Positions 2,203 to 19,289 of a stretch of DNA of 19,297 nucleotides are shown here, piece after piece (position 1 is the stretch's first letter; each line of letters starts with the position of its first letter). Both the position numbers and the translations under genes were made by a program. This stretch comes from Nitrospinota bacterium (lineage in GTDB: Bacteria; UBA8248): positions 1 to 19,297 of the forward strand of contig JASLZZ010000014.1 in assembly GCA_030754595.1 (NCBI GenBank). Reading direction: 5' to 3'. The notes below the pieces were generated by a model, which saw only the letters and a list, made by a program, of their open reading frames with translations, had not been told where the DNA came from and searched no databases.

Positions 2203-2334
2203 TTGATATTGTGACCTTAATTATTTTTAATCCCCACCCCCGGGAGGATTATTCCTTGCCCAGCCTGTTCATCTATGTAATTATATTATAAACGTTTGCA
2301 TGATATCTCCCCCTGATTGAGACGGGGAATTATT
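2203..2334. promoter_or_regulatory. AT-rich divergent promoter region between the lactonase-like gene and the mrp operon
   Basis: Visibly AT-rich stretch (ttaattatttttaa, tatgtaattatattataaac) between divergent genes, with an imperfect inverted repeat taatcc...ggatta. Exact promoter boxes cannot be assigned. Confidence 0.5.
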
Positions 2335-4686
2335 TTGGAATCGATTTCCGTAGCTGTTTTCTTCCCTTTCGCGGTAGCCGTCGCGGTTCCCTACTTCGCC
2401 AACCGACACAGATCCATTGCGGCCTGGATGGCTATGCTCGCCCCCGTGGTGAGCCTCTGGGCGCTCGTCCTCCTGTACGGGGAATGGTCGGCGGCGGGCC
2501 GGGGGGCGCTCCTCTATTCCTTCTCCTGGGTTCCCTCGGCGGGCCTGGACGTATCCTTCCTGGTCGATGGCCTCAGCATCATGTGGGGCTTCCTCGTCGC
2601 CGGCGTCGCCTTCCTCATCGTCCTCTATTCGAACTTCTATCTCCACGAACACGAGGACCTGGGGCGCTACTACGGCTGGCTCATCGCCTTCATGGGCTCG
2701 ATGATGGGGGTGGTGTTCGCCGACCATCTGCTCACTCTCTTTATCTCCTGGGAGCTGACCAGCGTCACCTCCTTTTTTCTGATCGGTTTCTGGAGCGATC
2801 GCGAGGCCGCCCTCTACGGCTCCCAAAAGGCGCTGCTCATCACCGGTGGCGGCGGGCTGGCGATGCTCGCGGGTTTTCTCCTTCTGGGCCAGGCGACCGG
2901 GGAATGGCACCTCTCGAAGCTGATCGCCATGAGCGGGGTAGCGGGCAAGGTCTCGCTCGCCGCCTTCGTGCTCATCATCCTGGGCGCGGCCACCAAGAGC
3001 GCCCAGTGGCCTTTCCACATTTGGCTGCCCAACGCGATGGAGGCTCCGACGCCCATCAGCGCGTTTCTCCACTCGGCCACCATGGTGAAGGCGGGAATCT
3101 ACCTTCTATCGCGCTTTTATCCCATCCTCGGGGAGCATCCGGCCTGGGGATACATCGTCATCGGACTCGGGATGACGACCATGATCGCGGGCGGGCTGTT
3201 GTCGCTGCGCGCCTACGACCTCAAGGCAATCCTGGCCTACGGGACGATCAGCCAGCTCGGCCTGATCGTCACCTTCCTGGGCTACGGGGGCCAGGAGGCC
3301 ATCATCGGGAGCACCCTCCATCTTTATAACCACGCGGCGGCGAAGGCGGCCATGTTCATGATCGTGGGGATCATCGACCACGAGACGGGAACGCGCGACG
3401 TCAGGCTGCTCGACCATCTGGCCCGGAGGATGCCGCGCGCTCATATCCTCGCCGTGCTGGCGGCGATCAGCCTCATCGGGGTTCCACCGATGGGCGGATT
3501 CCTCACCAAGGAGATGCTCTACGGCGTGAGCATCCATCCCGGCGGGCCGGGAGAGTGGGCCGCCTTCTGGCCCTGGCTCACCCTCGCCGCGGGGATTATC
3601 ACCGCCCTCTACCATCTGCGCTTCCTGGGCGCTCCTTTCTGGACCCCGGCCGAGGGAACATCCCCCAAGCCGGGCCACGATCCCTCCACCGGCTTCCTCG
3701 CGGCTCCGGCCATTCTCGTGGCCCTGGCGATTGCCTTCGGCGTCGCGCCCGGCCTGATCGAGGGCACTTTCGTGGCCCCCGCCGCGGAGGCCACGCTGGG
3801 CGGCGGCGGCCACCTCGAATTCCACCTCGCCCTCTGGCACGGCGTAAATCAGCCGCTCGTCATGTCCATCATCACGGTGGCGGCCGCAGGTTTTCTTTAC
3901 TGGAAACTCGATTGGGTGTCGGGCATCCTAGACGCCGTGGCGGAAATGTGGAAAAAGGGCCCCGGGCCGAACAAGGCCTACGATGGGGCGATCTTCATCC
4001 TCAAGGAGCGCACCTGGCCCCTGCTTTTATCGCTCCAGGACGGCAACCTCCGCCGCTATCTGCGCTGGTCGATGACGGTGCCCGCCCTCTTGCTCCTCGC
4101 CGCCGCCCTGTGGTTGGACTGGGGCGAGGGCATCTGGCCCGCGTTTAGCGGGGCGACGTTCATCGGCGCCTCGGTTTGCATCCTGATCTCGATCTCGGCG
4201 CTGGCCACCGCCCTGTTTCCGGGCCGGCTCCCGGCCATCCTGGCGCTGGGGACGGCGGGTTATGCCATCGCTAGCCTCTATGTCGTCCTGAAGGCGCCCG
4301 ATCTGGCCCTTACCCAGATCATGATCGAGTCCGCCTCGATCATTCTTTTCCTGCTGGCCTTCTGGTTCCTCCCCGAAATCAAAATCATCCCCAAACCCCT
4401 CAGCCGCCGAGCGCGCGACTGGGGAATCGCCATCTTCCTGGGCGCTTCGTCCGCCGCGGGCATGGCGCTCGCCATGAACTCCCATAACCTCAGAACCATC
4501 GCCGACTACTTCTTTCTCACGAGCAAACCCATCGCCGGGTTCCAGAACGTGGTCAACGCCATCATCGTGGACTACCGGGGCTACGACACCCTGGGGGAGA
4601 TCACCGTATTGGTGATTTCCGGGGTCGCCATCCACGCGATGCTCCGCATCGTGGGCACGATGCAGGACGAGGGGGAGGGCCACTAG
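2335..4686 (+). CDS. mrpA: Multisubunit Na+/H+ antiporter subunit A
   Basis: NuoL-like motifs: WELTSVTSFFLIG, TKSAQWPFHIWLPNAMEAPTPISAFLHSATMVKAG, APDLALTQ, NVVNAIIVDYRGYDTLGE. Likely TTG start at 2335 after GGGGA; the ORF is open from 2317. Confidence 0.95.
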   Translation: MESISVAVFFPFAVAVAVPYFANRHRSIAAWMAMLAPVVSLWALVLLYGEWSAAGRGALLYSFSWVPSAGLDVSFLVDGLSIMWGFLVAGVAFLIVLYSNFYLHEHEDLGRYYGWLIAFMGSMMGVVFADHLLTLFISWELTSVTSFFLIGFWSDREAALYGSQKALLITGGGGLAMLAGFLLLGQATGEWHLSKLIAMSGVAGKVSLAAFVLIILGAATKSAQWPFHIWLPNAMEAPTPISAFLHSATMVKAGIYLLSRFYPILGEHPAWGYIVIGLGMTTMIAGGLLSLRAYDLKAILAYGTISQLGLIVTFLGYGGQEAIIGSTLHLYNHAAAKAAMFMIVGIIDHETGTRDVRLLDHLARRMPRAHILAVLAAISLIGVPPMGGFLTKEMLYGVSIHPGGPGEWAAFWPWLTLAAGIITALYHLRFLGAPFWTPAEGTSPKPGHDPSTGFLAAPAILVALAIAFGVAPGLIEGTFVAPAAEATLGGGGHLEFHLALWHGVNQPLVMSIITVAAAGFLYWKLDWVSGILDAVAEMWKKGPGPNKAYDGAIFILKERTWPLLLSLQDGNLRRYLRWSMTVPALLLLAAALWLDWGEGIWPAFSGATFIGASVCILISISALATALFPGRLPAILALGTAGYAIASLYVVLKAPDLALTQIMIESASIILFLLAFWFLPEIKIIPKPLSRRARDWGIAIFLGASSAAGMALAMNSHNLRTIADYFFLTSKPIAGFQNVVNAIIVDYRGYDTLGEITVLVISGVAIHAMLRIVGTMQDEGEGH

Positions 4687-5124
4687 ATGCGCTCGCTCAT
4701 CCTTAGAACGATTGCGCCGATCGTGTTGCACCTGACGCTGATCTTCTCGCTATTTCTCCTGCTCTACGGGCACAACCAGCCGGGCGGTGGCTTTATCGCC
4801 GGCCTCATGACGGCGGTGGGAATTGTTCTTCAGTGGGTCACCTTCGACGCCGACGACGGGTGGCACCGCTACAACTGGCCCTGGGACCGCATCTTCTCCT
4901 ACGGCCTGGCCCTTTCGGCCTGCGTCGGCTTGTTCGGGCTTCTTTCGGGATACTTCCTCAAGGGCTCGGCCTACGAGTTCAACCTTCCGTTCATCGGCGA
5001 GGTCGAGGTGTTGACGGCGTTTTTCTTCGACGTCGGCGTCTACGCGGTGGTGGTCGCCGTGTTGCTGTCGATCCTGACGACCTTCTGCGACCGCCGCGCG
5101 GTCATCCGGGGAACCCCGAAATGA
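4687..5124 (+). CDS. mrpB: Na+/H+ antiporter subunit B
   Basis: GHNQPGGGFIAGL and FFDVGVY motifs; upstream GGAGG SD; operon position. Confidence 0.93.
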   Translation: MRSLILRTIAPIVLHLTLIFSLFLLLYGHNQPGGGFIAGLMTAVGIVLQWVTFDADDGWHRYNWPWDRIFSYGLALSACVGLFGLLSGYFLKGSAYEFNLPFIGEVEVLTAFFFDVGVYAVVVAVLLSILTTFCDRRAVIRGTPK

Positions 5125-5468
5125 TCTGGTTCCTTTCGATCACGATCGGCGTTCTGGTGACGGCGGGAGCCTACCTGGCGATGCAGCGCCGGTTGATCCA
5201 GATGGTGCTGGGATTCTCGCTGCTGAGCCACGCCACCAATCTGATGATCGTCGCCTCGGGATGGGTGGGAGACGGTTTCTCGCCCATCCTGCGCTCCTAC
5301 AAGGCCCCGGACCCTGCCACCTATGTGGACCCCCTGCCGCAGGCGATGGTCCTGACCGCCATCGTGATCAGCTTCGCGGTAACGGCCTTTCTTCTCGTGA
5401 TTGCCCTGATGGCTTACCGCAGTTTCGAGACCGACGACATCGACGAAATGCGGAGGCTCAAAGGATGA
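5121..5468 (+). CDS. mrpC: Na+/H+ antiporter subunit C
   Basis: ATG at 5121 overlaps the mrpB stop (ATGA); LLSHATNL and DPLPQAMVLTAIVISFA motifs. Confidence 0.93.
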   Translation: MIWFLSITIGVLVTAGAYLAMQRRLIQMVLGFSLLSHATNLMIVASGWVGDGFSPILRSYKAPDPATYVDPLPQAMVLTAIVISFAVTAFLLVIALMAYRSFETDDIDEMRRLKG

Positions 5469-6940
5469 ACTTGTTCCTTCCGGTCCCGGTGCTGCTCCCG
5501 CTGGTCACAGCGATCGCCTTGTTCCTGGTCCGCCAACATCAGAAAATCCAGGAGCGCCTCAGCAACGCCTCGCTGGCGGTCAACCTCGCCTTCGCGCTCT
5601 CGCTCCTCTCCGCCACGGCCGGGGGAGATATTTTCATTCACCGGATGGGAATGTGGCCCTTCCCCTTCGGAATCATCCTCGCCGCGGACCGCCTGACGGG
5701 GACGATGGTCGTCCTCGCGGCGGCCATCGTGGCCGCCTGCACCTTGTTCGCCCAGGGATATCTGTCCACGAACCAGCGCCGCGAGGTGTTCCACCCGCTC
5801 ATTCACTTCCAGCTCATGGGCATCCAGGGTGCGTTCATGACGGGCGACCTGTTCAACCTTTTCGTTTTCTTCGAGGTTATGCTCATCTCGACTTACGCGC
5901 TCCTCGCCTTTTACTACAACCTCGACCAGCTCGAGGTGGCCCTCAAATACACTTTCCTCAATCTTGTCGCCTCGGCGATGTTCCTCGTGGGCATATCGTT
6001 TCTCTACGCACAGGTGGGCACCGTCAACATGGCCGATCTATCGGTGAAAATCCGGGAGCTGGGCCCTCAACCGCTCATGGTGGTGACGGCGTTCATCTTT
6101 TTGTTCGTCTTCTCGATGAAGGCGGCGCTGTTTCCGATGCACCTGTGGCTGCCCTCGGCCCACTCGATTTCACCCACCCATATCGGCGCGGTTCTCGCCG
6201 GGGTCCTCGTCAAGGTGGGCATCTACAGCATCATCCGGTGCGCGTGGTTGATCTTTCCGGGTCCGTTCAAAGTCCTTCAGCCCATGATCATGACGATCGC
6301 GCTGGTGACGATCGTCTGGGGCGCGCTGGGGACGCTTCCGCAGCGGAGCCTCAAACGGATTCTGGCCTACTCGACTATCAACCAGCTCGGCTACATCGCC
6401 TTCGGCGTCGCGCTCCTCTCGCCCCTGGGGATGACGGCCGCGATTTTCTACATCGTCAGCCACGCCTTCCTCAAAAGCTCGATGCTCCTGGGAGCGGGAC
6501 TGAACCAGAAGTTGACGGGCACCGTCGATCTCGACGAGATGGGCGGGATGATGGCGAAAGCGCCCTACGCGAGCGCGCTCATGCTAGTGGGTTTCCTCTC
6601 CCTGGCCGGGATTCCGCCGCTGAGCGGTTTTTTCTCGAAATTATTCTTACTCCAGGCGGGGTTCACCCAGGGGGCCTATCTGGCGACCGGGCTGGCGCTT
6701 CTGATGGGCGTCATCTCGCTTTACTACAACTTCACCACCTATCAGCGGATGGCCTGGGGAACGGGCGGGAACGAGGCCCGCGAAGCACCGGCGACCATGT
6801 ATTCGTCGGTCAGCTTCCTGGCCTCGTTCGCGGTGATTTTCGGCATCGGCGCCGCCTGGCTCTACGAGTGGTCTCATCTGGTCGCCAGTCAGATCACACG
6901 GCCCGAGCTATACATCAACGCCATGCGGAACGCGCTTTAG
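5465..6940 (+). CDS. mrpD: Na+/H+ antiporter subunit D
   Basis: ATG at 5465 overlaps the mrpC stop; GDLFNLFVFFEVML, KAALFPMHLWLP, VKVGIY, LAGIPPLSGFFSK motifs. Confidence 0.94.
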   Translation: MNLFLPVPVLLPLVTAIALFLVRQHQKIQERLSNASLAVNLAFALSLLSATAGGDIFIHRMGMWPFPFGIILAADRLTGTMVVLAAAIVAACTLFAQGYLSTNQRREVFHPLIHFQLMGIQGAFMTGDLFNLFVFFEVMLISTYALLAFYYNLDQLEVALKYTFLNLVASAMFLVGISFLYAQVGTVNMADLSVKIRELGPQPLMVVTAFIFLFVFSMKAALFPMHLWLPSAHSISPTHIGAVLAGVLVKVGIYSIIRCAWLIFPGPFKVLQPMIMTIALVTIVWGALGTLPQRSLKRILAYSTINQLGYIAFGVALLSPLGMTAAIFYIVSHAFLKSSMLLGAGLNQKLTGTVDLDEMGGMMAKAPYASALMLVGFLSLAGIPPLSGFFSKLFLLQAGFTQGAYLATGLALLMGVISLYYNFTTYQRMAWGTGGNEAREAPATMYSSVSFLASFAVIFGIGAAWLYEWSHLVASQITRPELYINAMRNAL

Positions 6941-6964
6941 ACGGACGCAAGGAGGAATCTTTCT

Positions 6965-7438
6965 ATGCCGCTTGCCACCCTCGCCTTGAGCATTTCGGTC
7001 ATCTGGCTCCTGCTCAAGGGCGACGGTTCGCCGGGTAATTTCTTCGTCGGGCTGATTTTGGCGATGATTCTGATTTATTTCCTCCGCCGGACCTATCACC
7101 AGGAGCGCTCGTTCCGCCGGGTGGGGGATATCGCTCACTTTCTCATCAATTTCACGCGCGAGTTGATCGTGGCGAATATTCAGGTCCTCAAGATCGTTCT
7201 CTCCCCGCGCATCAGCATCCGCCCCGGCATCATCGCCTTCAAGACCGAGTGCAAGACGCCGCTGGGAATCACCCTCCTCGCCAACTCGATCACCCTGACG
7301 CCGGGGACCCTCAGCGTGGACATCTCCGAGGACCAGACCACCATTTTCATTCACACGCTCGACATCGAGAATCCCGACCAGGTGCGCGACGGCATCCGGC
7401 GGGGCCTCGAGGAGCCCGTGAAGGGGGCCTGCGAGTGA
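6965..7438 (+). CDS. mrpE: Na+/H+ antiporter subunit E
   Basis: Strong SD AAGGAGG; LLANSITLTPGT motif. Confidence 0.93.
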   Translation: MPLATLALSISVIWLLLKGDGSPGNFFVGLILAMILIYFLRRTYHQERSFRRVGDIAHFLINFTRELIVANIQVLKIVLSPRISIRPGIIAFKTECKTPLGITLLANSITLTPGTLSVDISEDQTTIFIHTLDIENPDQVRDGIRRGLEEPVKGACE

Positions 7439-7704
7439 TACAGGGCGCCGTCCATATTGCGCTGGTGATGCTCATCGCCTCGACCGCGCTGAGTTTTTAC
7501 CGGCTGGCGAAAGGTCCCACCACCCCGGACCGGATCATCGCCGCCGACAATATCGCCACCAACCTCACCGGGATTCTCGCCCTGTTCGCGATTCAGACCG
7601 GAGAAAAACTAATCATCATCGCTGTGGTCGCCCTGACGATTCTCAGCTTCGTCGCGACGGCGGTGCTCGCCAAGTTCCTCGAGAGGGGGAAAATCATTGA
7701 GTGA
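7435..7704 (+). CDS. mrpF: Na+/H+ antiporter subunit F
   Basis: GTG at 7435 overlaps the mrpE stop (GTGA); RLAKGPTTPDRIIAAD motif; three hydrophobic segments. Confidence 0.9.
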   Translation: MIQGAVHIALVMLIASTALSFYRLAKGPTTPDRIIAADNIATNLTGILALFAIQTGEKLIIIAVVALTILSFVATAVLAKFLERGKIIE

Positions 7705-8119
7705 TTTCGTCGCCTCCGCCGTTATCCTGGTTGGCGCGTTTTTCATGTTCGTCGCCAGCCTGAGCCTCGTGCGCTTTCCCGACCTCTACACCCGCATGCA
7801 CGGCGCGACGAAGGCCACCACCTTCGGCATGGGCGGAATCTTGATAGCGACGGCCCTGGCTTTCGGCACCACGGACGTGGCGGCTCAGTCCATGTTGGCG
7901 CTCGTATTCTTGTTCCTGACGGCGCCGGTGTCCGGTCACCTGATCTCGCGCGCCGCCTACCGCAATGGGCCCAATCTCACCCCAATCACGACGGTGGACG
8001 ACTACGGCCCCTACCTGGACGCCGAAAAAGCGGCCGACGAGAAAAAAGCCGAAGAGGAAAGCGAGGGCGGCGAGGAAGGAGAGGCGCCCAGCCATCCCTC
8101 GGCGAGCCCGCTCCCCTGA
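7697..8119 (+). CDS. mrpG: Na+/H+ antiporter subunit G
   Basis: TTG start overlapping the end of mrpF; RFPDLYTRMHGATKATT and FLTAPVSGHLISRAAY motifs; acidic C-terminal tail. Confidence 0.92.
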   Translation: MSDFVASAVILVGAFFMFVASLSLVRFPDLYTRMHGATKATTFGMGGILIATALAFGTTDVAAQSMLALVFLFLTAPVSGHLISRAAYRNGPNLTPITTVDDYGPYLDAEKAADEKKAEEESEGGEEGEAPSHPSASPLP

Positions 8120-10361: not shown

Positions 10362-11156
10362 TCAAACGATCGCCACCGGGCGGACGGGCGATCCCGTTCC
10401 CCCGCGGATTTTCAGCGGAAGCGCAACAAATAGAAATTCGTAGGTCCTCGTCCGGCCCAGTTCCTCGAGGTCGGCGATCTCGAGAAGGTGAATCCCCTTC
10501 TCCACCAGCATGTGAACGTGCACCGGGCTCGCGGGGTCGGGCCTCACTTCGACGCAGTAGGTGTCCGAGCCCACCATCCAGATGCCCCTATCGGAGAGCC
10601 ACTTCGCCCCCTCGAGATTGAGGCCCGGCTGGCCGCTCTTCTGGAAGTAATAGTCCCGCTCGGGCCAGTGCCCGAATTGGCCCGTGCGGACGAGGACGAC
10701 GTCGCCCTCGCCGATCCGCACGCCCTGCGCTCCGGCGGCGGCATCGAGTTCGGCGGGGCCGATGCCGAATCCGCCTTCGAGGACCTCTTTTTTCAGGTGA
10801 GCCGCCACATCGAGGAGCACCCCCCGCTGCACGAAGGGCGCCACCGTCTCGATGCCGTGGGCCTTCATTCCTTCGGTCTTGCTCTGAACGCTCACTGCGT
10901 CGATGCCGCCGTGGAGCTTCAGGTCCTTCGAGTAATGGCTCAGCGCGTCGATGTGTGTCCCGGTGTGACCTGTGCAGAAAATGGCCTCGACGGAGGAGCA
11001 GGCCCCGCCCTCGACCATCCAGTCGCCGTGCTCGCGGTTCAGGGTGAAGCCGTAGGGGGCGTGAAGGGGAACATGGGGCATCCCCGGAAACAGATCGACA
11101 CCCATGTCGAACACCTGGCTGCCGCGGACAAACGAGCAAAGATCTTCGAAATTCAT
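10362..11156 (-). CDS. Cyclase family metal-dependent hydrolase (kynurenine formamidase-like)
   Basis: HTGTHIDALSH (HxGTHxDxxxH), GDVVLVRTG, PLKIRGGTGSPVRPVA. ATG 11156 follows a G-rich SD; the ORF is open from 11192. Confidence 0.9.
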   Translation of the reverse strand: MNFEDLCSFVRGSQVFDMGVDLFPGMPHVPLHAPYGFTLNREHGDWMVEGGACSSVEAIFCTGHTGTHIDALSHYSKDLKLHGGIDAVSVQSKTEGMKAHGIETVAPFVQRGVLLDVAAHLKKEVLEGGFGIGPAELDAAAGAQGVRIGEGDVVLVRTGQFGHWPERDYYFQKSGQPGLNLEGAKWLSDRGIWMVGSDTYCVEVRPDPASPVHVHMLVEKGIHLLEIADLEELGRTRTYEFLFVALPLKIRGGTGSPVRPVAIV

Positions 11157-11296
11157 AGCGGACCCCCGATAGGAATGGATGGACGTATTCACCGCTCTGG
11201 AAAAATGGACACTTCCATTCTAGACTTCACCTTACGCCCCGACAATGCGGCAGCCCGCCACCCGCACCCGGCGCCCGGAACCGACGAGAAACCGAT

Positions 11297-11716
11297 TTGA
11301 GCACGATAAGCGCGTTTATCCATCCCGCCGTCCAGACGGTCTCGCTGATCCTCGGTCTCTTCCTTCTGGCGCTGGGACTGCGGATCAGAAAAAGCCGTCA
11401 GTCGGGGGCCCAAACCGCCCGGCTCTCGTCCCTGCACATGCGGCTGGGCCGGTGCTTCACCGCCCTGATCGCGGGGGGTTATCTCATCGGCCCGATCGGG
11501 ATGCGCTACGCGCTGGGCGAACCCGTATTCGCCTCGGCGCACGGTTACTTCGGCACCCTCGCGCTCGCTCTCTTTTTGGGGACCGCCTACCTCGGACGAA
11601 AACTCAGGCTCGCCCCGGACAGTGAGGATTTTCGGCAAATCCACGTTTTTTGCGCCTTCATCGCCGTATTCGTCTCCCTCGCCGTGGCGATTCTGGGGTT
11701 TCAGCTGCTCCCCTGA
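11297..11716 (+). CDS. Four-TM membrane protein with four His, DUF4079/cytochrome b561-like
   Basis: Four hydrophobic helices, each with a His near its start (IHP, LHMRLG, AHGYFG, IHVFC). The family call is from pattern recall. Confidence 0.65.
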   Translation: MSTISAFIHPAVQTVSLILGLFLLALGLRIRKSRQSGAQTARLSSLHMRLGRCFTALIAGGYLIGPIGMRYALGEPVFASAHGYFGTLALALFLGTAYLGRKLRLAPDSEDFRQIHVFCAFIAVFVSLAVAILGFQLLP

Positions 11717-11943
11717 AGCGGCGAAAACAGGGCATAATACGGTCTCTCCCTTTGCCTCCCCGCCAAAATGATCACCCGCCTACGGAATAAGACCTCGCCT
11801 GGGATGTTCCATAAAAAGAATATCTTCTATCGATTCAAACAAGGGAAACTGACTTTTGAAACCAACAATCCACCGGTTGTCGATACTTTTTGACGATATT
11901 TCCGGGCCTCGCGGGTCCGGCCCTTTGCGGAGGTAAGCAGGTC

Positions 11944-12561
11944 ATGTCTCGACGATTAGTGACGATCTCGTTCGGCGCGCTCCTCGCCCTCTCTCTGTGG
12001 GCGGCGGCGCCCGCCGATCGGGCCAGCGCCCAAAACCCCTGCGGGGGGGGCAATCCCTGCGCGGCCAAAAACCCGTGCGCTGCGAAGAACCCCTGCGCGG
12101 CCAATCCGTGCGCTGCCAAAAACCCGTGCGGCACTAATCCCTGCGCGGCGAAGAACCCTTGCGGCGGAAACCCCTGCAACCCCTGCGGCGGCGGGGGCGC
12201 GAGCGCCCGTTTCGAAGGTGTGATGATCTCGGGCAAGGTGGCCGGTTACAAGGGCAATTTCCTGAACATCCAATCCGCGAACGGCAAGGTCATTCCTGTC
12301 CACCTTCAAAAGACCACCATCGCCCACATCGGCAACAAAACCGTTGGCGCCAAAACCCTTCGCCGGGGAATGGCGGTGAGCATCTCGACCCAGGCGCGCG
12401 GAAATTACCACAAGGCCAACTTCATATACGCCCGGGCCGGAGGCGGAGGCGGCAACCCGTGCGGCGGAAATCCCTGCGCAGCGAAAAATCCTTGCGGCGG
12501 GAAAAATCGCTGTGGCGGGAACCCCTGCGCAGCCAAAAACCCCTGCGCAAAGAGAAAATAG
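11944..12561 (+). CDS. Secreted NPC-repeat (Cys-rich) protein with a central small beta domain (DUF5666/OB-fold-like)
   Basis: GGAGG SD at 11929; signal peptide MSRRLV...ASA; 10 NPC units, a ~85-aa beta-rich domain (ISGKVAGYKGNFLNI...LRRGMAVSI), then 5 NPC plus 1 NRC; ends TAG TAA. Confidence 0.85.
   Translation: MSRRLVTISFGALLALSLWAAAPADRASAQNPCGGGNPCAAKNPCAAKNPCAANPCAAKNPCGTNPCAAKNPCGGNPCNPCGGGGASARFEGVMISGKVAGYKGNFLNIQSANGKVIPVHLQKTTIAHIGNKTVGAKTLRRGMAVSISTQARGNYHKANFIYARAGGGGGNPCGGNPCAAKNPCGGKNRCGGNPCAAKNPCAKRK
12034..12186 (+). repeat. Coding tandem repeat block 1: 10 x NPC with AAK/AA/GG/GT spacers
   Basis: AAY-CCN-TGC units with varied synonymous codons. Confidence 0.95.
12454..12546 (+). 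repeat. Coding tandem repeat block 2: 5 x NPC plus 1 NRC
   Basis: NPCGGNPCAAKNPCGGKNRCGGNPCAAKNPC. Confidence 0.95.
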
Positions 12562-12626
12562 TAAGCCGCTTGAGCGGCGATTCCTTTCTCGGGAATGTTG
12601 TTTTTATATAATCGGAGACCAAAAAA

Positions 12627-13331
12627 ATACGAAAGCTCTGTTCGTTCATTGTAATCGCGCTCACGGCGGCCCTAGCCCTTCCAATGGCGTATTCCGAAGC
12701 TGCCACGCAAATCGCCAAGAAGAAAACCGTTACGCCGCCTCCCTTCTTCTTCACCCAGAAGCGAGACGGATGGGGAAGCTCCATCGCCGTCTCCGTCAAG
12801 CGGGGCAAGAAGGTCTTCCGCGATGTCGGCTGCGTGGGCTGTCACCCCCGTGGCCGCACGGTCGGCGGCACGGCCGTGGACGTCATGGGCAACCGCAACC
12901 CCGTGCCCATCCCGACTCTAATAGGCGCGGCCGAGCACTTCCCGCGCCTGAGCCCGGCCGGCCAGGTCATCAACCTGGGACAGATGAACGACCTCTGTGC
13001 CGCCGTCTTCACCGTCCATCCGCCGATGGACCCCTACTCACAGAAGTACAAAGACCTCGAAGCCTACGTCTCCTCCCTCTCGCCGAAGAAATACAAGCGG
13101 ATGCTGAGTTGGGAGAAAAAGCGCAAGGCCTTGCTAGCGAAAGTGAAGCCCGCCGGAGGCGGCCGCTCCAATCCGTGCAACCCCTGCGGAGGAAACCCCT
13201 GCGCCGCGAACCCCTGCGCGGCAAAGAACCCTTGCGGCGGAAACCCTTGCGCCGCGAAGAATCCTTGTGGCGGAAATCCCTGCGCCGCGAAAAATCCCTG
13301 CGCGGGCAGGAACCCCTGCGCGAGGAAATAG
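12627..13331 (+). CDS. Monoheme cytochrome c (SoxA/TsdA-like domain, predicted His/Cys ligation) with C-terminal NPC-repeat tail
   Basis: CVGCH at 12831-12845; AAEHFP...VINLGQMNDLC...DLEAYVSSL pattern. The signal peptide RKLCSFIVIALTAALALPMAYSEA is complete only from ATA 12627, after a GGAG SD; the first ATG is at 12684. Confidence 0.8.
   Translation: MRKLCSFIVIALTAALALPMAYSEAATQIAKKKTVTPPPFFFTQKRDGWGSSIAVSVKRGKKVFRDVGCVGCHPRGRTVGGTAVDVMGNRNPVPIPTLIGAAEHFPRLSPAGQVINLGQMNDLCAAVFTVHPPMDPYSQKYKDLEAYVSSLSPKKYKRMLSWEKKRKALLAKVKPAGGGRSNPCNPCGGNPCAANPCAAKNPCGGNPCAAKNPCGGNPCAAKNPCAGRNPCARK
13170..13319 (+). repeat. Coding tandem repeat block 3: 10 x NPC
   Basis: NPCNPCGGNPCAANPCAAKNPCGGNPCAAKNPCGGNPCAAKNPCAGRNPC. 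Confidence 0.95.
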
Positions 13332-13407
13332 CGCGAGCGCAAATTTTCACGGCGGGAGAATTCCTGTAGCATTCTTCGCCAGCGCATCCATTTCATCGGG
13401 TCTCGCC

Positions 13408-13449
13408 CGGGCGCGGAAGAAGCCGGGTCCTCTTCCGCGCCCGAGTTTT
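13408..13449 (+). terminator. Intergenic 13-bp hairpin; possible weak terminator or mRNA stabiliser
   Basis: CGGGCGCGGAAGA-10 nt-TCTTCCGCGCCCG followed by AGTTTT. Confidence 0.45.
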
Positions 13450-13486
13450 GCCTGAACCATCGACCGAAAGAGAGGATCAATACGCC

Positions 13487-14284
13487 ATGAGCCGCAACGC
13501 GCTGACACGGACGGGAATCGCGGCCTTCGCACTGGGCCTTCTCGCCGCCTTCTCCGCTCCCGCCCTCGCCGCCCCCGCCAAGCACCCCCGCCGAGCGGAA
13601 TTGAACAAGGGCGACTACTGGCTCGGCAAGGAGATCTACGAGGAGATCTGCTTCTCCTGCCACGGCACCAAAGGCAACGGGCAAGGCCCGAGTTTCAGGT
13701 CCTCCCGCCCCCGGCCCCAAGTGTTCACCAGCTCCTATATGAAGCGCATGACGGACGACTATATTTTCCTAATCGTCAAATTCGGAAAAATAAATGTCCT
13801 GCTCGATAAAACCAAGGGTTTCAAACTCAATGCAACCACCCCGACGGCGATGCCCGCCTTCGGCGAGGTGCTCGAGGACGAACAGATCCGCAAGCTGATC
13901 AAATGGGAGCACGGCCTCACCACCGGCAAAAAAATCAAGGACGAGGAGTCGACCGAGATATTCAAGGACGCATGCTCCCAGTGCCACGGCCTCGCGGGCC
14001 GGGGCGACGGCGAGCGCCCCCGGGGCAGCCAGCCTCTCGGCAAACCCTTCGTGAGCGAGATTCAGCCGCCTCCGATGGACTACACTCTAAAAGAGCAGAT
14101 GGCCCGCTTCGACGACGAATTCCTCTTCACGCTCATCAAGTACGGCCGCCTTGAGGCCACCACCGTCAAAAAATTCGACTACATGAAGGCCTACGGCCAT
14201 GTCCTGAACGACGATGAAATCTGGGGCGTCGTGCGTTATGTGCGCGAGACATTCATCAACGGGAAACCGCGAAAGAAAAAATAG
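13487..14284 (+). CDS. Periplasmic diheme class I cytochrome c
   Basis: GAGG SD; signal peptide ending ALA; CFSCH (13649) and CSQCH (13973), each followed by G..G.G.G; distal Met candidates TAMPAF and YMKAY; two-fold internal repeat. Confidence 0.9.
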   Translation: MSRNALTRTGIAAFALGLLAAFSAPALAAPAKHPRRAELNKGDYWLGKEIYEEICFSCHGTKGNGQGPSFRSSRPRPQVFTSSYMKRMTDDYIFLIVKFGKINVLLDKTKGFKLNATTPTAMPAFGEVLEDEQIRKLIKWEHGLTTGKKIKDEESTEIFKDACSQCHGLAGRGDGERPRGSQPLGKPFVSEIQPPPMDYTLKEQMARFDDEFLFTLIKYGRLEATTVKKFDYMKAYGHVLNDDEIWGVVRYVRETFINGKPRKKK

Positions 14285-14290
14285 GCGGCC

Positions 14291-15070
14291 ATGAGTACCG
14301 GCGGCGCCAAAGCGGCGATCCTCACAGCGGCAATCCTCGCCTGTCTCCCGGCCACGCCGGGGTGGACGGCCACGCAAAAACCACCAACCGGCGATAAAAT
14401 GGTTTTCGTCGAGGCGGGTTCCTTCATCCAGGGAAGCGAGGACGGCCCGCTTCAGGAGCTTCCCGTCCGGCGAATCCATCTCGACAGCTTCCGGATAGAC
14501 CGCGACGAGGTCTCTGTCAGTGAATGGGAGCGCTTCCGGAGCGCGACTGGCCACCGGCCTTCCAAATACGCTTTCGACTCCGCACTACACCGCCCGCGGC
14601 TTCCCATAACCGGCGTCAGCTGGCACGACGCGTCGGCCTATTGCCGCTGGCGGGGAGCGCGGCTACCCACCGAGGCCGAGTGGGAAAAAGCCGCGCGCGG
14701 ACCGGGCGGGCGGCGCTACCCCTGGTGAGATGCTTTCGACCCCGCCCTCGCGGCCCACGGCGGCCGGGGCGCCCCTCCCCCGGTGGGTGGGAGGCCCGGC
14801 GGCGAGAGCCCCTACGGCGCGCGCGGGATGGCGGGCGACGTCTGGGAGTAGACCCACGACTTCTGGGATGAGTTCTACTACCGCGAGTCCCCGGCGCGGA
14901 ATCCCCAGGGCCCGCCCTCGGGATTTCTCCACACCATCAAGGGCGGCTCCTGGCGCAACGCGCCCGAGATGCTCCGCGCAGCCACCCGCTTTCGCCTCGA
15001 CGGCATCATCCGCTGGAAAATCTTCGGCTTTCGCTGCGCGAAGGACGCCCCCTCCTCTCCCTCACCCTAG
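14291..15070 (+). pseudogene. Exported FGE-sulfatase-domain (SUMF1/NirV/PvdO-like) protein with two in-frame stops
   Basis: One frame gives VSWHDA.AYCRW, RLPTEAEWEKAARG, YPW*(TGA 14726), SPYG..GMAGDVWE*(TAG 14849), KGGSW and GFRC, ending at TAG 15068-15070. Confidence 0.85.
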
Positions 15071-15109
15071 CCCTAGCCCTAGCCCTAGCCCTCTCCCAGA
15101 GGGAGAGGG
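15059..15109. repeat. REP-like palindromic element with an expanded hexamer: CCCTCA-(CCCTAG)4-CCCTCTCCC-AGA-GGGAGAGGG
   Basis: Four exact CCCTAG copies at 15065-15088 and a perfect 9-bp stem at 15089-15109. Confidence 0.75.
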
Positions 15110-15179
15110 GATAAATGCTCCCCCCCCCCCACCGCCACCGGGAAAGGTGCGCCGGGGGCGGTCCCGAGTTCTCCTCAAA

Positions 15180-15225: not shown

Positions 15226-15301
15226 CAATTCCTGAAGAATGCTGGACTTCCCTCCTTCGGAATTGCCCCTGCCGGCCTTCGGGTGCGGCGGGGGTTTTTT
15301 T
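15226..15301 (+). ncRNA. Candidate ~75-nt small regulatory RNA
   Basis: Lies between the promoter and the terminator. Stem CAATTCC(T)GAAG/CTTCGGAATTG has a loop exposing CTTCCCTC (anti-SD-like). No family recognised. Confidence 0.5.
15266..15301 (+). terminator. Rho-independent terminator
   Basis: GC stem CCCCTGCCG-GCC / GGT-G-CGGCGGGGG closed by a cTTCGg tetraloop, then T7 (15295-15301). Confidence 0.8.
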
Positions 15302-18662: not shown

Positions 18663-19289
18663 TCATTGAGCCGGCACCCGGGTCTTCCGGTTCATTGGTC
18701 TTTTCCGGTCTACATGGAGATTTCGGATATGGGTTTGAGAGCCGAGCAGCGCCGGCATTCCCGGATGGAGGTTCCCATTCAAATTGATTTGCCGCGCCTC
18801 GCCCGGCCGCCGGCTCTCCACGTGCCGCTCCCTGAAGCAGGGGTTGGCCTTTTCAATCGCCGCCGCCTGGGCGGGGGTGAGCTTCACCTTCTCCCTCGAG
18901 GCCCGCTCCTCGAGCTTGAGCAGCCGCTCGTAGCGCGAGCCCAGCCCCCGTTTGATGAGAATCTTCTGAATGACAGGGCTCGATACAGAAACCCCCGCGA
19001 ACTTGAGTTGCTGGCTCAGCCGCGTGCAGCCCCGCATCGGGTTCTCCGACGAGAGCGCGAGAATCTTCTCCACCGTCTCGGGAGGCGTCGTCATGGGATG
19101 GGACTTGTGCACCGGGGGCAAATCCCTGAGGCCCTCCAGACCGTGCGTCTGGAAACGCCGTTTGTACTCGTAGAACTGGGTGCGGCTCATGCCTCGCCTT
19201 CGGCAGGCCTCGGACACGTTCCCCAAAGCTTCGGCCAATTGCAAGGCACTCAGGCGCCCTCGAACCACCTTCTTCTCGGCAACGGTCAT
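18663..19289 (-). mobile_element. Truncated IS481-family transposase (HTH part only)
   Basis: LAEALGNVSEACRRRGMSRTQFYEYKRRFQTHGLEGL...RERHVESRRPGE. Similarity stops near 18798, just before the expected DDE integrase core. Confidence 0.8.

Follow-up and report, generated by a model that had tools for sequence, protein, structure and literature searches.

What does a secreted cytochrome c with a tail of ten Asn-Pro-Cys (NPC) units do, and with which partners? The question is raised by five co-oriented reading frames, here called g1 to g5, in a 19,297-nucleotide contig of a Nitrospinota bacterium (JASLZZ010000014.1), the whole of which is referred to as the window. The original prediction, made from the letters of the window only, had placed the five frames exactly where we find them, and had proposed that electrons run from a membrane b-type carrier through a dihaem cytochrome c to a His/Cys-ligated cytochrome acting on flexible poly-thiol arms, for the carriage of sulfane sulfur or the buffering of Cu, Ag or Hg. 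We report that the tailed cytochrome, g3, is assigned by profile comparisons of its core to the SoxA/TsdA superfamily of cysteine-ligated cytochromes, and that it stands in an undescribed architecture and operon. The source genome comprises 3.55 Mb in 138 contigs and is 96.9% complete; the named relatives of the window's proteins come from Nitrospinota/Nitrospinae metagenome-assembled genomes, and 20 runs from 13 studies of seawater or other marine samples contain a near-identical copy of the stretch (at least 0.8 of its words), none of them listed as RNA. Assignment of signal peptides and of the four transmembrane helices of g1 was by eye. The features of the cluster, with structural data from AlphaFold2 (AF2) and its predicted local distance difference test (pLDDT), are as follows.

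11297–11716, plus strand: g1, four-helix membrane protein, DUF4079/cytochrome b561-like; TTG start, 139 residues
11944–12561, plus strand: g2, secreted protein made of an NPC array, a small beta-barrel and a second NPC array; 205 residues, 16 Cys
12034–12186, plus strand: g2 N-terminal array, 10 NPC units in translation, a tandem repeat
12217–12441, plus strand: g2 core, predicted oligonucleotide/oligosaccharide-binding (OB)-like beta-barrel of ~75 residues; AF2 strands at residues 94–164, pLDDT 83–94
12454–12546, plus strand: g2 C-terminal array, 5 NPC units and 1 NRC unit in translation, length-polymorphic in nature
12627–13331, plus strand: g3, secreted monohaem cytochrome c of SoxA/TsdA type with a C-terminal NPC tail; start codon ATA here
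12831–12845, plus strand: g3 haem motif CVGCH, residues 69–73; C72 and H73 invariant, C69 at least 90% conserved (28 members)
12996–12998, plus strand: g3 Cys124 (TGT), putative distal haem ligand or reactive residue, nearly invariant among 28 members
13170–13319, plus strand: g3 tail, 10 NPC units in translation, a tandem repeat
13487–14284, plus strand: g4, secreted dihaem class-I cytochrome c; ATG at 13487, CFSCH at 13649–13663, CSQCH at 13973–13987
14291–15070, plus strand: g5, FGE-sulfatase-fold gene, a pseudogene here; Pfam FGE-sulfatase, 108 bits on the first 145 residues

In the product of g3, a signal peptide precedes a core of ~150 residues, in which lie the only CVGCH motif and the conserved Cys124, and the 10 NPC units come last; the single haem and the ten units had both been counted correctly in the original prediction. 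Its start codon is ATA in the window and ATG in a relative of the same genus (G001). Contigs from four runs, each from a different study, were compared with the stretch, and the start site proved polymorphic, with G at 12629 in two of the four. The E-values of full-length searches were inflated by the repeat tails, and homology was judged from the core alone. A profile containing g3 matched SoxA (1h31_A) at E 1.4e-4 and TsdA at E 0.05. Alignment by hhalign of the Nitrospinota cores with proteobacterial cores that bear PF21342 gave a probability of 79% and an E-value of 1.6e-5, with the CxxCH motif and the Cys aligned. When 1.84 billion representatives were searched with the core, only 81 clusters were recovered at E <= 0.001. 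The more distant ones make up a sister clade, in which CxxCH and M-x3-C are likewise invariant.

The sister clade provided the bridge to characterised proteins. Its profile matched SoxA 1h31_A at E 1.6e-10 and TsdA 4wq7 at E 1.3e-8, and one of its members (L146) scored 47 bits on PF21342 (cut-off 27). The family Cys falls on the Cys of TsdA 'RIGDC' and of SoxA 'MINAC', and the CxxCH His on the His of TsdA 'CRHCH'. Cys124 of g3 aligns with the sister-clade Cys, and through it with the Cys of TsdA/SoxA; the ligand Cys numbers of the latter, which we take to be C96 and C114, agree with counting in the alignment. According to the available excerpts of PMC4423706, the Cys of TsdA ligates the haem and is also where the thiosulfonate intermediate is formed. 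As the family Cys aligns with this haem-ligand Cys, His/Cys ligation of the g3 haem through Cys124 appears a sound reading, in keeping with the His/Cys cytochrome that had been placed in the proposed chain. The motif around the Cys is 'QMNDLC' in g3 and 'QFND[LWF]C' or 'IMNDL-Sec' in orthologues, Sec being selenocysteine. The residue four before the Cys is Arg in TsdA ('RIGDC'), but Met or Phe in g3 and its orthologues, and the thiosulfate pocket is therefore not conserved in g3. The second (haem-2) domain of SoxA has 'RFRGC', whereas the motif of the g3 family fits the 'MINAC' of the first (haem-1) domain.

The reactivity of residue 124 was further indicated by its replacement in relatives. 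In 4 of the 18 orthologues with a readable motif (L034, 9828–10313; L036, 9292–9795; L037, 3061–3531; L038, 1219–1638), the codon equivalent to Cys124 is TGA. The in-frame sequence is conserved after the TGA, and a hairpin lies ~13 nt 3' of the UGA with the core CUCGGCCGUGAGCCGAUGG, which is invariant across the Sec-type orthologues, so that covariation gives no signal. An internal TGA was flagged in two further genomes by the g3 search of relatives. SelB scored above its cut-off in 46 of the 61 relatives, including the TGA carriers G012, G041 and G042, but not in the fourth carrier, G022, which is 67% complete. All 63 proteobacterial motif matches have Cys, never TGA, at this position. The TGA forms thus look like a selenocysteine form of a SoxA/TsdA-type cytochrome, and the Cys/Sec pair suggests that residue 124 is chemically active. 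In the part of PMC13188914 available to us, a review table of prokaryotic selenoprotein families contains no such monohaem cytochrome.

The second bearer of NPC units is g2, whose start is the ATG at 11944 behind a GGAGG box, not position 11890. All of its 16 Cys fall inside the two arrays, which bears out the 16 repeat Cys that had been attributed to a secreted protein. At the DNA level the arrays of g2 and g3 are tandem repeats of period 18/33, far beyond chance; the Cys of each unit is conserved while adjacent residues vary, and the arrays are Lys-rich. In contigs of two of the four runs, the C-terminal array of g2 contains 84 extra bases (joint 12547>12502 plus 38 letters). AF2 modelled the core with a pLDDT of ~90 and both arrays as disordered, with values below 50. 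The core belongs to a small family (11 homologues by word search), and neither Pfam nor NCBIfam contained a family matching g2. Foldseek found no match for the core in pdb at E <= 0.001; its top rows were cold-shock and OB folds, and Cu(I)-CusF (2vb2) ranked seventh with E 9.7e-3 and a template-modelling score (TMt) of 0.69. DUF5666 was the atlas lead for this core (0.82) and is taken as a lead only.

The flanking genes encode predicted electron carriers. The four His of g1, at 9, 47, 82 and 116, are the only ones in the protein and are invariant in 13/13 aligned orthologues, in exact agreement with the membrane protein with four His that had been described. Its Pfam scores are 51.7 bits for DUF4079 (cut-off 31.4) and 29.8 bits for Cytochrom_B561 (cut-off 23); by model score and four His, g1 belongs with the cytochrome b561/DUF4079 families, and haem binding is predicted. 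A sequence search found no solved structure related to it. In g4, two CxxCH motifs confirm a dihaem cytochrome c (Cytochrome_CBB3, 72.9 bits; Cytochrom_C, 63.9 bits). Both motifs, together with the MP and YMKAYG stretches, are kept in 9 orthologues, and the nearest solved relative is 6h5l_B (E 2.2e-10). The dihaem g4 follows g3 as TsdB follows TsdA, as expected from the partnership that the original prediction had assumed between a dihaem c and a His/Cys cytochrome.

To what extent do these genes stay together? Of 61 relatives searched, 33 have sequences like g3, and within the same family the figure is 28 of 36 genomes. In 20 loci of relatives, picked for holding g3 and searched by tblastn, g4 was present in 18, g1 in 15, the Cyclase-family gene that diverges from g1 in 14, and the g2 core and g5 in the same 10. 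Even at ~50% identity, and in another family of the same class, the genes stand in the order g1-(g2)-g3-g4-(g5). The cluster is thus a conserved unit, as the synteny check had been meant to establish, with g1, g3 and g4 as its stable core. The co-occurrence of g2 and g5 is perfect, both in 10 loci and neither in 10 (n = 20), with the contig of one locus without them (L038) ending before the expected position of g5. It constitutes weak evidence, because all loci without g2 and g5 come from one genus and one loss event could explain them.

Only four NPC reading frames occur in the source genome, namely g2, g3, an NPC-only peptide and the tail of a MerT-like protein. The peptide (L122, contig C41, 459–1144) is a secreted protein of 90 residues made almost only of NPC units, with 13 Cys, and is directly followed by a ResA/TlpA-like redoxin whose open reading frame (ORF) looks N-terminally short. 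An AIRS-family gene two genes past the NPC-only gene was considered as a link to selenium and discarded, as it is ThiL. On contig C94 (L121, 1811–5558), the NPC tail forms the C-terminus of a membrane protein with weak likeness to MerT (E 0.0038), which seemingly lacks the first MerT helix, possibly through a frameshift. Its neighbours are a glutaredoxin-like ORF, a regulator of the MerR family (MerR being its best model, at 128 bits and under the cut-off), a MerT-like ORF, MerE (39 bits, over the cut-off) and TrxB. No MerA scored above the cut-off in the source genome, and the window contains no MerR, MerT/P or MerA. Among 35 further proteins scanned, NPC arms flank P460-like haem domains in 7, and 27 matched no family; such arms were also found on a YHS (seleno)protein domain and on OB-like cores. 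The module that had been noticed on two unrelated domains in adjacent genes, g2 and g3, is therefore present on other unrelated domains as well. A random distribution of its tails would have spoken against the proposal; instead, periplasmic redox or metal proteins are their recurrent bearers.

Of 619 candidate stretches from a search that took one genome per species, 560 were confirmed, a lower bound that marks the cytochrome as widespread. The best 80 loci (L041–L120), mostly from Gamma- and Betaproteobacteria and including sulfur-oxidising symbionts, had the following neighbours of the NPC cytochrome.

DUF6969: 46/80 loci
YeeE/YedE-type transporter: 35/80 loci
Secreted Cys protein of ~160 residues with the motif 'YSCPLNPTPDY': 17/80 loci
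ExtKL-like multihaem cytochrome: 15/80 loci (69 bits, under the cut-off of 250)
True MerA: 15/80 loci, within 7 kb (883 bits)
DUF3179: 15/80 loci
Redoxin/thioredoxin: 10 (5+5)/80 loci
FGE-fold (g5-like) genes: 6/80 loci
CcdA-type DsbD_TM: 5/80 loci
DUF3379: 5/80 loci
MerR: 4/80 loci
Low-molecular-weight phosphatase/ArsC type: 3/80 loci
MbnB with DUF2063: 3/80 loci

DUF6969 accompanies the proteobacterial NPC cytochrome more consistently than any other neighbour; its best hit among solved structures has a meaningless E-value of 0.35. Searching the 80 loci by tblastn with g1, the g2 core and g4 gave nothing at E <= 1e-4, which divergence may explain. Cultured carriers of the proteobacterial version include Stutzerimonas, Zobellella, Oceanisphaera and Amphritea.

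The sister clade (P0135–P0170; loci L123–L174) bears a different kind of arm. It was confirmed in 52 of 170 metagenome stretches, and the cytochrome frame was called in 36 loci. The arms contain 15.7% Met and 0.6% Cys. A dihaem c comes directly after the cytochrome in 28 of these 36, with a CarboxypepD_reg protein (9 loci) and DUF3179 (5) further on; upstream, an extracytoplasmic function (ECF) sigma/anti-sigma pair with TonB occurs in 4 loci and ExbB-ExbD in 3. The CarboxypepD_reg protein has a stretch, 'HNIH...CDVHRWM', that by eye resembles a copper site.

Based on these data, we tentatively favour the idea that haem-serviced poly-thiol arms capture thiophilic cargo, most plausibly a soft metal. 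In this proposal, g1 to g4 would form a periplasmic 'thiol-arm' redox module. The disordered, Lys-rich NPC arrays of g2 and g3 would be free multi-thiol arms holding cargo such as Cu(I) or Hg(II), and the distal Cys of the g3 haem domain, Sec in some relatives, would be the reactive residue that exchanges two-electron S-S or S-metal chemistry with the arms or the cargo. Electrons would pass among the low-potential g3 haem, the dihaem g4 and the four-His, two-haem-b g1, the latter linking the arms to the membrane or the cytoplasm, while g5, a pseudogene in this species, would be an accessory whose presence follows that of g2. The pair of cytochrome and dihaem protein would constitute the conserved engine, and the Cys or Met arms the variable business end. 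That the cargo or redox state of free sulfur-ligand arms is processed at a Cys/Sec-ligated haem is suggested by the conservation of the pair, the variability of the arms and the recurrence of thiol-reducing helpers nearby. The arms are likely to carry free thiols because of their pLDDT below 50, the redoxin after the NPC-only gene and the redoxin/thioredoxin and CcdA neighbours. As to the cargo, the Met-for-Cys arms, the locus with MerT, MerR and MerE, the proximity of MerA in Proteobacteria, the fusion to YHS and the missing anion-binding Arg tilt the balance towards a soft metal. Of the two cargoes originally proposed, sulfane sulfur and Cu/Ag/Hg, the evidence thus leans to the thiophilic metal or else to an oxidant, sulfur or selenium being less likely.

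Several observations weigh against this proposal. No metal pump, P-type ATPase, CusCBA, multicopper oxidase or metal regulator was found in the Nitrospinota cluster. To our knowledge, all characterised members of the SoxA/TsdA haem family act on sulfur anions. Class-I dihaem cytochromes c usually have a high potential, which suits substrate oxidation better than disulfide reduction. The resemblance of g2 to CusF is weak and the OB fold is generic. By itself, g3 matched no Pfam family at E <= 0.01, PF21342 not being reached, and its AF2 model is poor, with a mean pLDDT of 56.8 from a 28-row alignment and arms below 50. The labels of the proteobacterial neighbours derive from crude ORF calls, clustering and one scanned representative per cluster. 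Among these neighbours, DUF6969 (46/80) and YeeE/YedE transporters of the sulfur/selenium type (35/80) outnumber MerA (15/80), and an ExtKL-like multihaem gene is present in 15/80 loci; in the accessible text of PMC13510729, ExtKL (MccSep) is a polysulfide/selenite reductase. The boldest version of the proposal is doubtful: the NPC arrays would be a new and widespread class of periplasmic poly-thiolate arm on which a SoxA-type haem, selenolate-ligated in some Nitrospinota, acts in cis, and which together with the dihaem c and the DUF4079 two-haem-b protein would form a hitherto unrecognised transmembrane electron line controlling the capture and release of Cu or Hg in marine nitrite oxidisers, which are abundant.

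We considered the possibility that the arms carry sulfur or selenium instead, the cluster being a self-contained analogue of SoxAX/SoxY in which the g3 haem joins or cleaves S or Se species (thiosulfate, sulfide, polysulfide or selenium species) on the arm Cys and electrons exit via g4, as from TsdA to TsdB. The dihaem partner next to g3 fits this arrangement as it does in TsdA/TsdB, and anions would be drawn to Lys-rich arms. Yet a sulfur carrier should not tolerate the arms of the sister clade, which are Met-rich and free of Cys on the same core, since Met is unable to carry sulfane sulfur. Nor does the haem site fit well: Met or Phe replaces the Arg of TsdA and of SoxA 'RFRGC', and the motif matches SoxA haem-1 'MINAC', although this is a SoxA/TsdA-type domain with its Cys in register with the catalytic or ligand one (excerpts of PMC4423706). 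The Cys/Sec pair is typical of sites where S-S or Se-S bonds are attacked (accessible part of PMC13510729), and the YeeE/YedE-type (35/80) and ExtKL-like (15/80) neighbours in Proteobacteria also point to sulfur or selenium. On the other hand, SoxY (PF13501) was not found in the 96.9%-complete genome (SoxZ, SoxX and SoxB were not searched for), NPC tails are borne by MerT-like and YHS proteins too, and the portion of PMC10839748 at hand assigns sulfide/thiosulfate oxidation to other Nitrospinota classes, not to the nitrite-oxidising one. On balance we regard a sulfur or selenium carrier as rather unlikely.

Alternatively, the arms might be sacrificial scavengers of reactive chlorine, oxygen or electrophiles, oxidised so that essential proteins of the periplasm are spared, and re-reduced by the chain g1-g4-g3. 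Cys and Met are the first residues that such oxidants attack, and the same core bears either type of arm; redoxin, thioredoxin and CcdA are among the neighbours, and the haem-b membrane partner g1 is presumably comparable to MsrQ. We know of no His/Cys haem that reduces sulfenates, protein disulfides or Met sulfoxide, and a low-potential His/Cys haem would have to receive its electrons uphill from a typical class-I dihaem c. A precedent is the Met-rich periplasmic peptide MrpX, a proven hypochlorite sink that is regenerated by a reductase under the control of an ECF sigma factor (PMC4436054, as far as its available text goes). In 4 metagenome loci the Met-rich cytochrome is preceded by ECF sigma/anti-sigma genes, and a DUF3379 gene is present in 5 proteobacterial loci, but the window contained neither a sigma/anti-sigma pair nor an Msr gene. 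Scavenging accounts equally well for the Met and Cys arms and for the sigma factors; it leaves the MerA/MerR/MerT context unexplained, and we consider it unlikely. Finally, the genes might form no joint system at all, being neighbours by descent, with the NPC arrays serving as a generic low-complexity linker or anchoring tail. This would agree with the absence of g2 and g5 from 10/20 loci, the death of g5 in the window and in a relative, the natural variation in array length, and the fact that the function of each part is read from its sequence. It is difficult to reconcile with an order g1-(g2)-g3-g4 kept to 50% identity, with the recurrence of the cytochrome–dihaem pair in the sister clade, with the retention of the Cys of every unit while neighbouring residues change, or with the occurrence of the arms on periplasmic redox or metal proteins, not at random. 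We consider it very improbable.

The gene g5 had been put forward as an exported FGE-fold protein of the system. The fold stands, as indicated by the Pfam score of 108 bits, but the intact protein does not: the frame is interrupted by TGA at 14726–14728 and TAG at 14849–14851, where the closest relative has GGA (Gly) and TGG (Trp). Both stops were spanned, with no other letter, in the contigs of all four runs, from four studies, and g5 is a fixed pseudogene of a widespread marine population. An assembly error was ruled out by these four independent assemblies. An alternative genetic code was dismissed as well, since the stops are different codons at Gly and Trp positions and the other genes of the window read normally. 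An orthologue in the genome G042 (L034, ~6440) has an independent TAG, in 'LTWQ*ARAYC'. The nonsense codons in the window and in G042 are different, and g5 was therefore lost independently more than once. An intact orthologue matches human FGE (SUMF1, 2aft) at E 7.8e-31, yet has no Cys at the catalytic CxxxxC. Being dead here and in G042, and devoid of the Cys pair even when intact, g5 is not an essential part of the system. Directly 3' of g5 lie a (CCCTAG)n-like repeat, read as 'PSPSPSP', and a run of 10 C (15050–15160), followed by a terminator-like hairpin at 15274–15296.

Some further features of the window were noted.

10362–11192, minus strand: divergent neighbour of g1, Cyclase (PF04199) family, Pfam 91 bits, adjoining g1 in 14/20 loci
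2317–8119: complete operon for an Mrp-type multisubunit cation/proton antiporter (families Proton_antipo_M, twice, MnhB, MNHE, MrpF and MnhG)
18663–19289, minus strand: helix-turn-helix protein of transposase type where the contig ends, possibly because a mobile element interrupts it

The Cyclase-family gene is a candidate member of the system by its conserved adjacency to g1. A scan for promoters and terminators gave 2 against 1.0 and 8 against 5.6, not above the shuffled counts. When positions 11200–15150 were compared with the same-genus locus L021, A in the window for G in the relative was the commonest class of substitution (50, against 26 in the reverse direction); three changes in the window relative to this locus were damaging, two G>A and one G>T.

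If the arms bind copper or mercury, the cluster bears on the handling of trace metals by the main oceanic nitrite oxidisers; marine nitrite oxidisers of this group have already been discussed in connection with mercury methylation in the ocean. Arms that carry sulfur or selenium would represent a new branch of Sox-like chemistry, and sacrificial arms a haem-driven counterpart of MrpX/MsrP. Here a SoxA/TsdA-type haem sits in a monohaem core whose flanking arms are built from a single repeated residue type, be it Cys or Met. With the Cys/Sec switch at a putative haem ligand, nature supplies a test case for selenolate-haem chemistry, and the cultured proteobacterial carriers make the question directly testable. 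The literature search, which extended to neither subscription journals nor supplements, did not find NPC repeat strings, 'NPC repeat' in this sense or DUF6969, and found one passing mention of DUF4079. A word search in the available part of PMC10839748 returned no b561, diheme, sulfatase or selenocysteine. The statement that no characterised pathway has this arrangement agrees with the literature searched, in which no description of it was found.

How, then, does the cluster compare with known systems? With SoxAX/SoxYZ it shares a c-type haem domain of the same Pfam family, whose Cys aligns with that of SoxA 'MINAC', and the idea of an enzyme acting on a Cys borne by a flexible arm. It differs in that no SoxY, SoxZ or SoxX is present here (only SoxY having been searched for genome-wide) and in that the 'RFRGC' Arg pattern of the second SoxA domain is absent from g3. 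The arm of SoxY is a single GGCGG tail, whereas that of g3 and g2 is an array of 5 to 10 NPC units fused to a cytochrome or an OB protein. With TsdA/TsdB the resemblance lies in the aligned CxxCH His and distal Cys (E 1.3e-8 for the sister-clade profile, 0.05 for the profile containing g3) and in the dihaem class-I cytochrome encoded beside g3. In contrast to g3, TsdA has two haems instead of one, Arg instead of Met four residues before the Cys, and no Cys arms; the best solved relative of g4 is 6h5l_B, not TsdB. As for the copper proteins, flexible segments rich in sulfur ligands stand beside a redox centre here as they do in CueO and PcoA, and the g2 core is an OB-like barrel, for which the fold list gives the Cu(I)/Ag(I) chaperone CusF as the nearest periplasmic example (rank 7, TMt 0.69), although no Foldseek match reached E <= 0.001 and the redox centre is haem, not copper. 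The intact orthologue of g5 matches human FGE (SUMF1, 2aft) over the fold (E 7.8e-31), but without its catalytic Cys pair, and the gene has two stops in this species.

The MrpX/YedY(MsrP) system likewise combines a disordered periplasmic segment rich in an oxidisable sulfur residue with a dedicated redox partner (PMC4436054, in the text available), and the sister clade of g3 has both Met-rich arms and ECF sigma neighbours. Here, however, Cys takes the place of Met and haem c proteins that of a molybdoenzyme, the window has no sigma/anti-sigma pair, and no homology is claimed. MccSep/ExtKL, as described in the accessible part of PMC13510729, resembles the present system in combining Cys-ligated haem chemistry with an active-site selenocysteine, and an ExtKL-like gene neighbours proteobacterial NPC cytochromes. 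There is no such gene in the window, and g3 is a monohaem protein. Furthermore, the Cys of MccSep ligates the haem while a separate Sec catalyses (same excerpts), whereas in the relatives of g3 the Sec would replace the putative ligand Cys itself.

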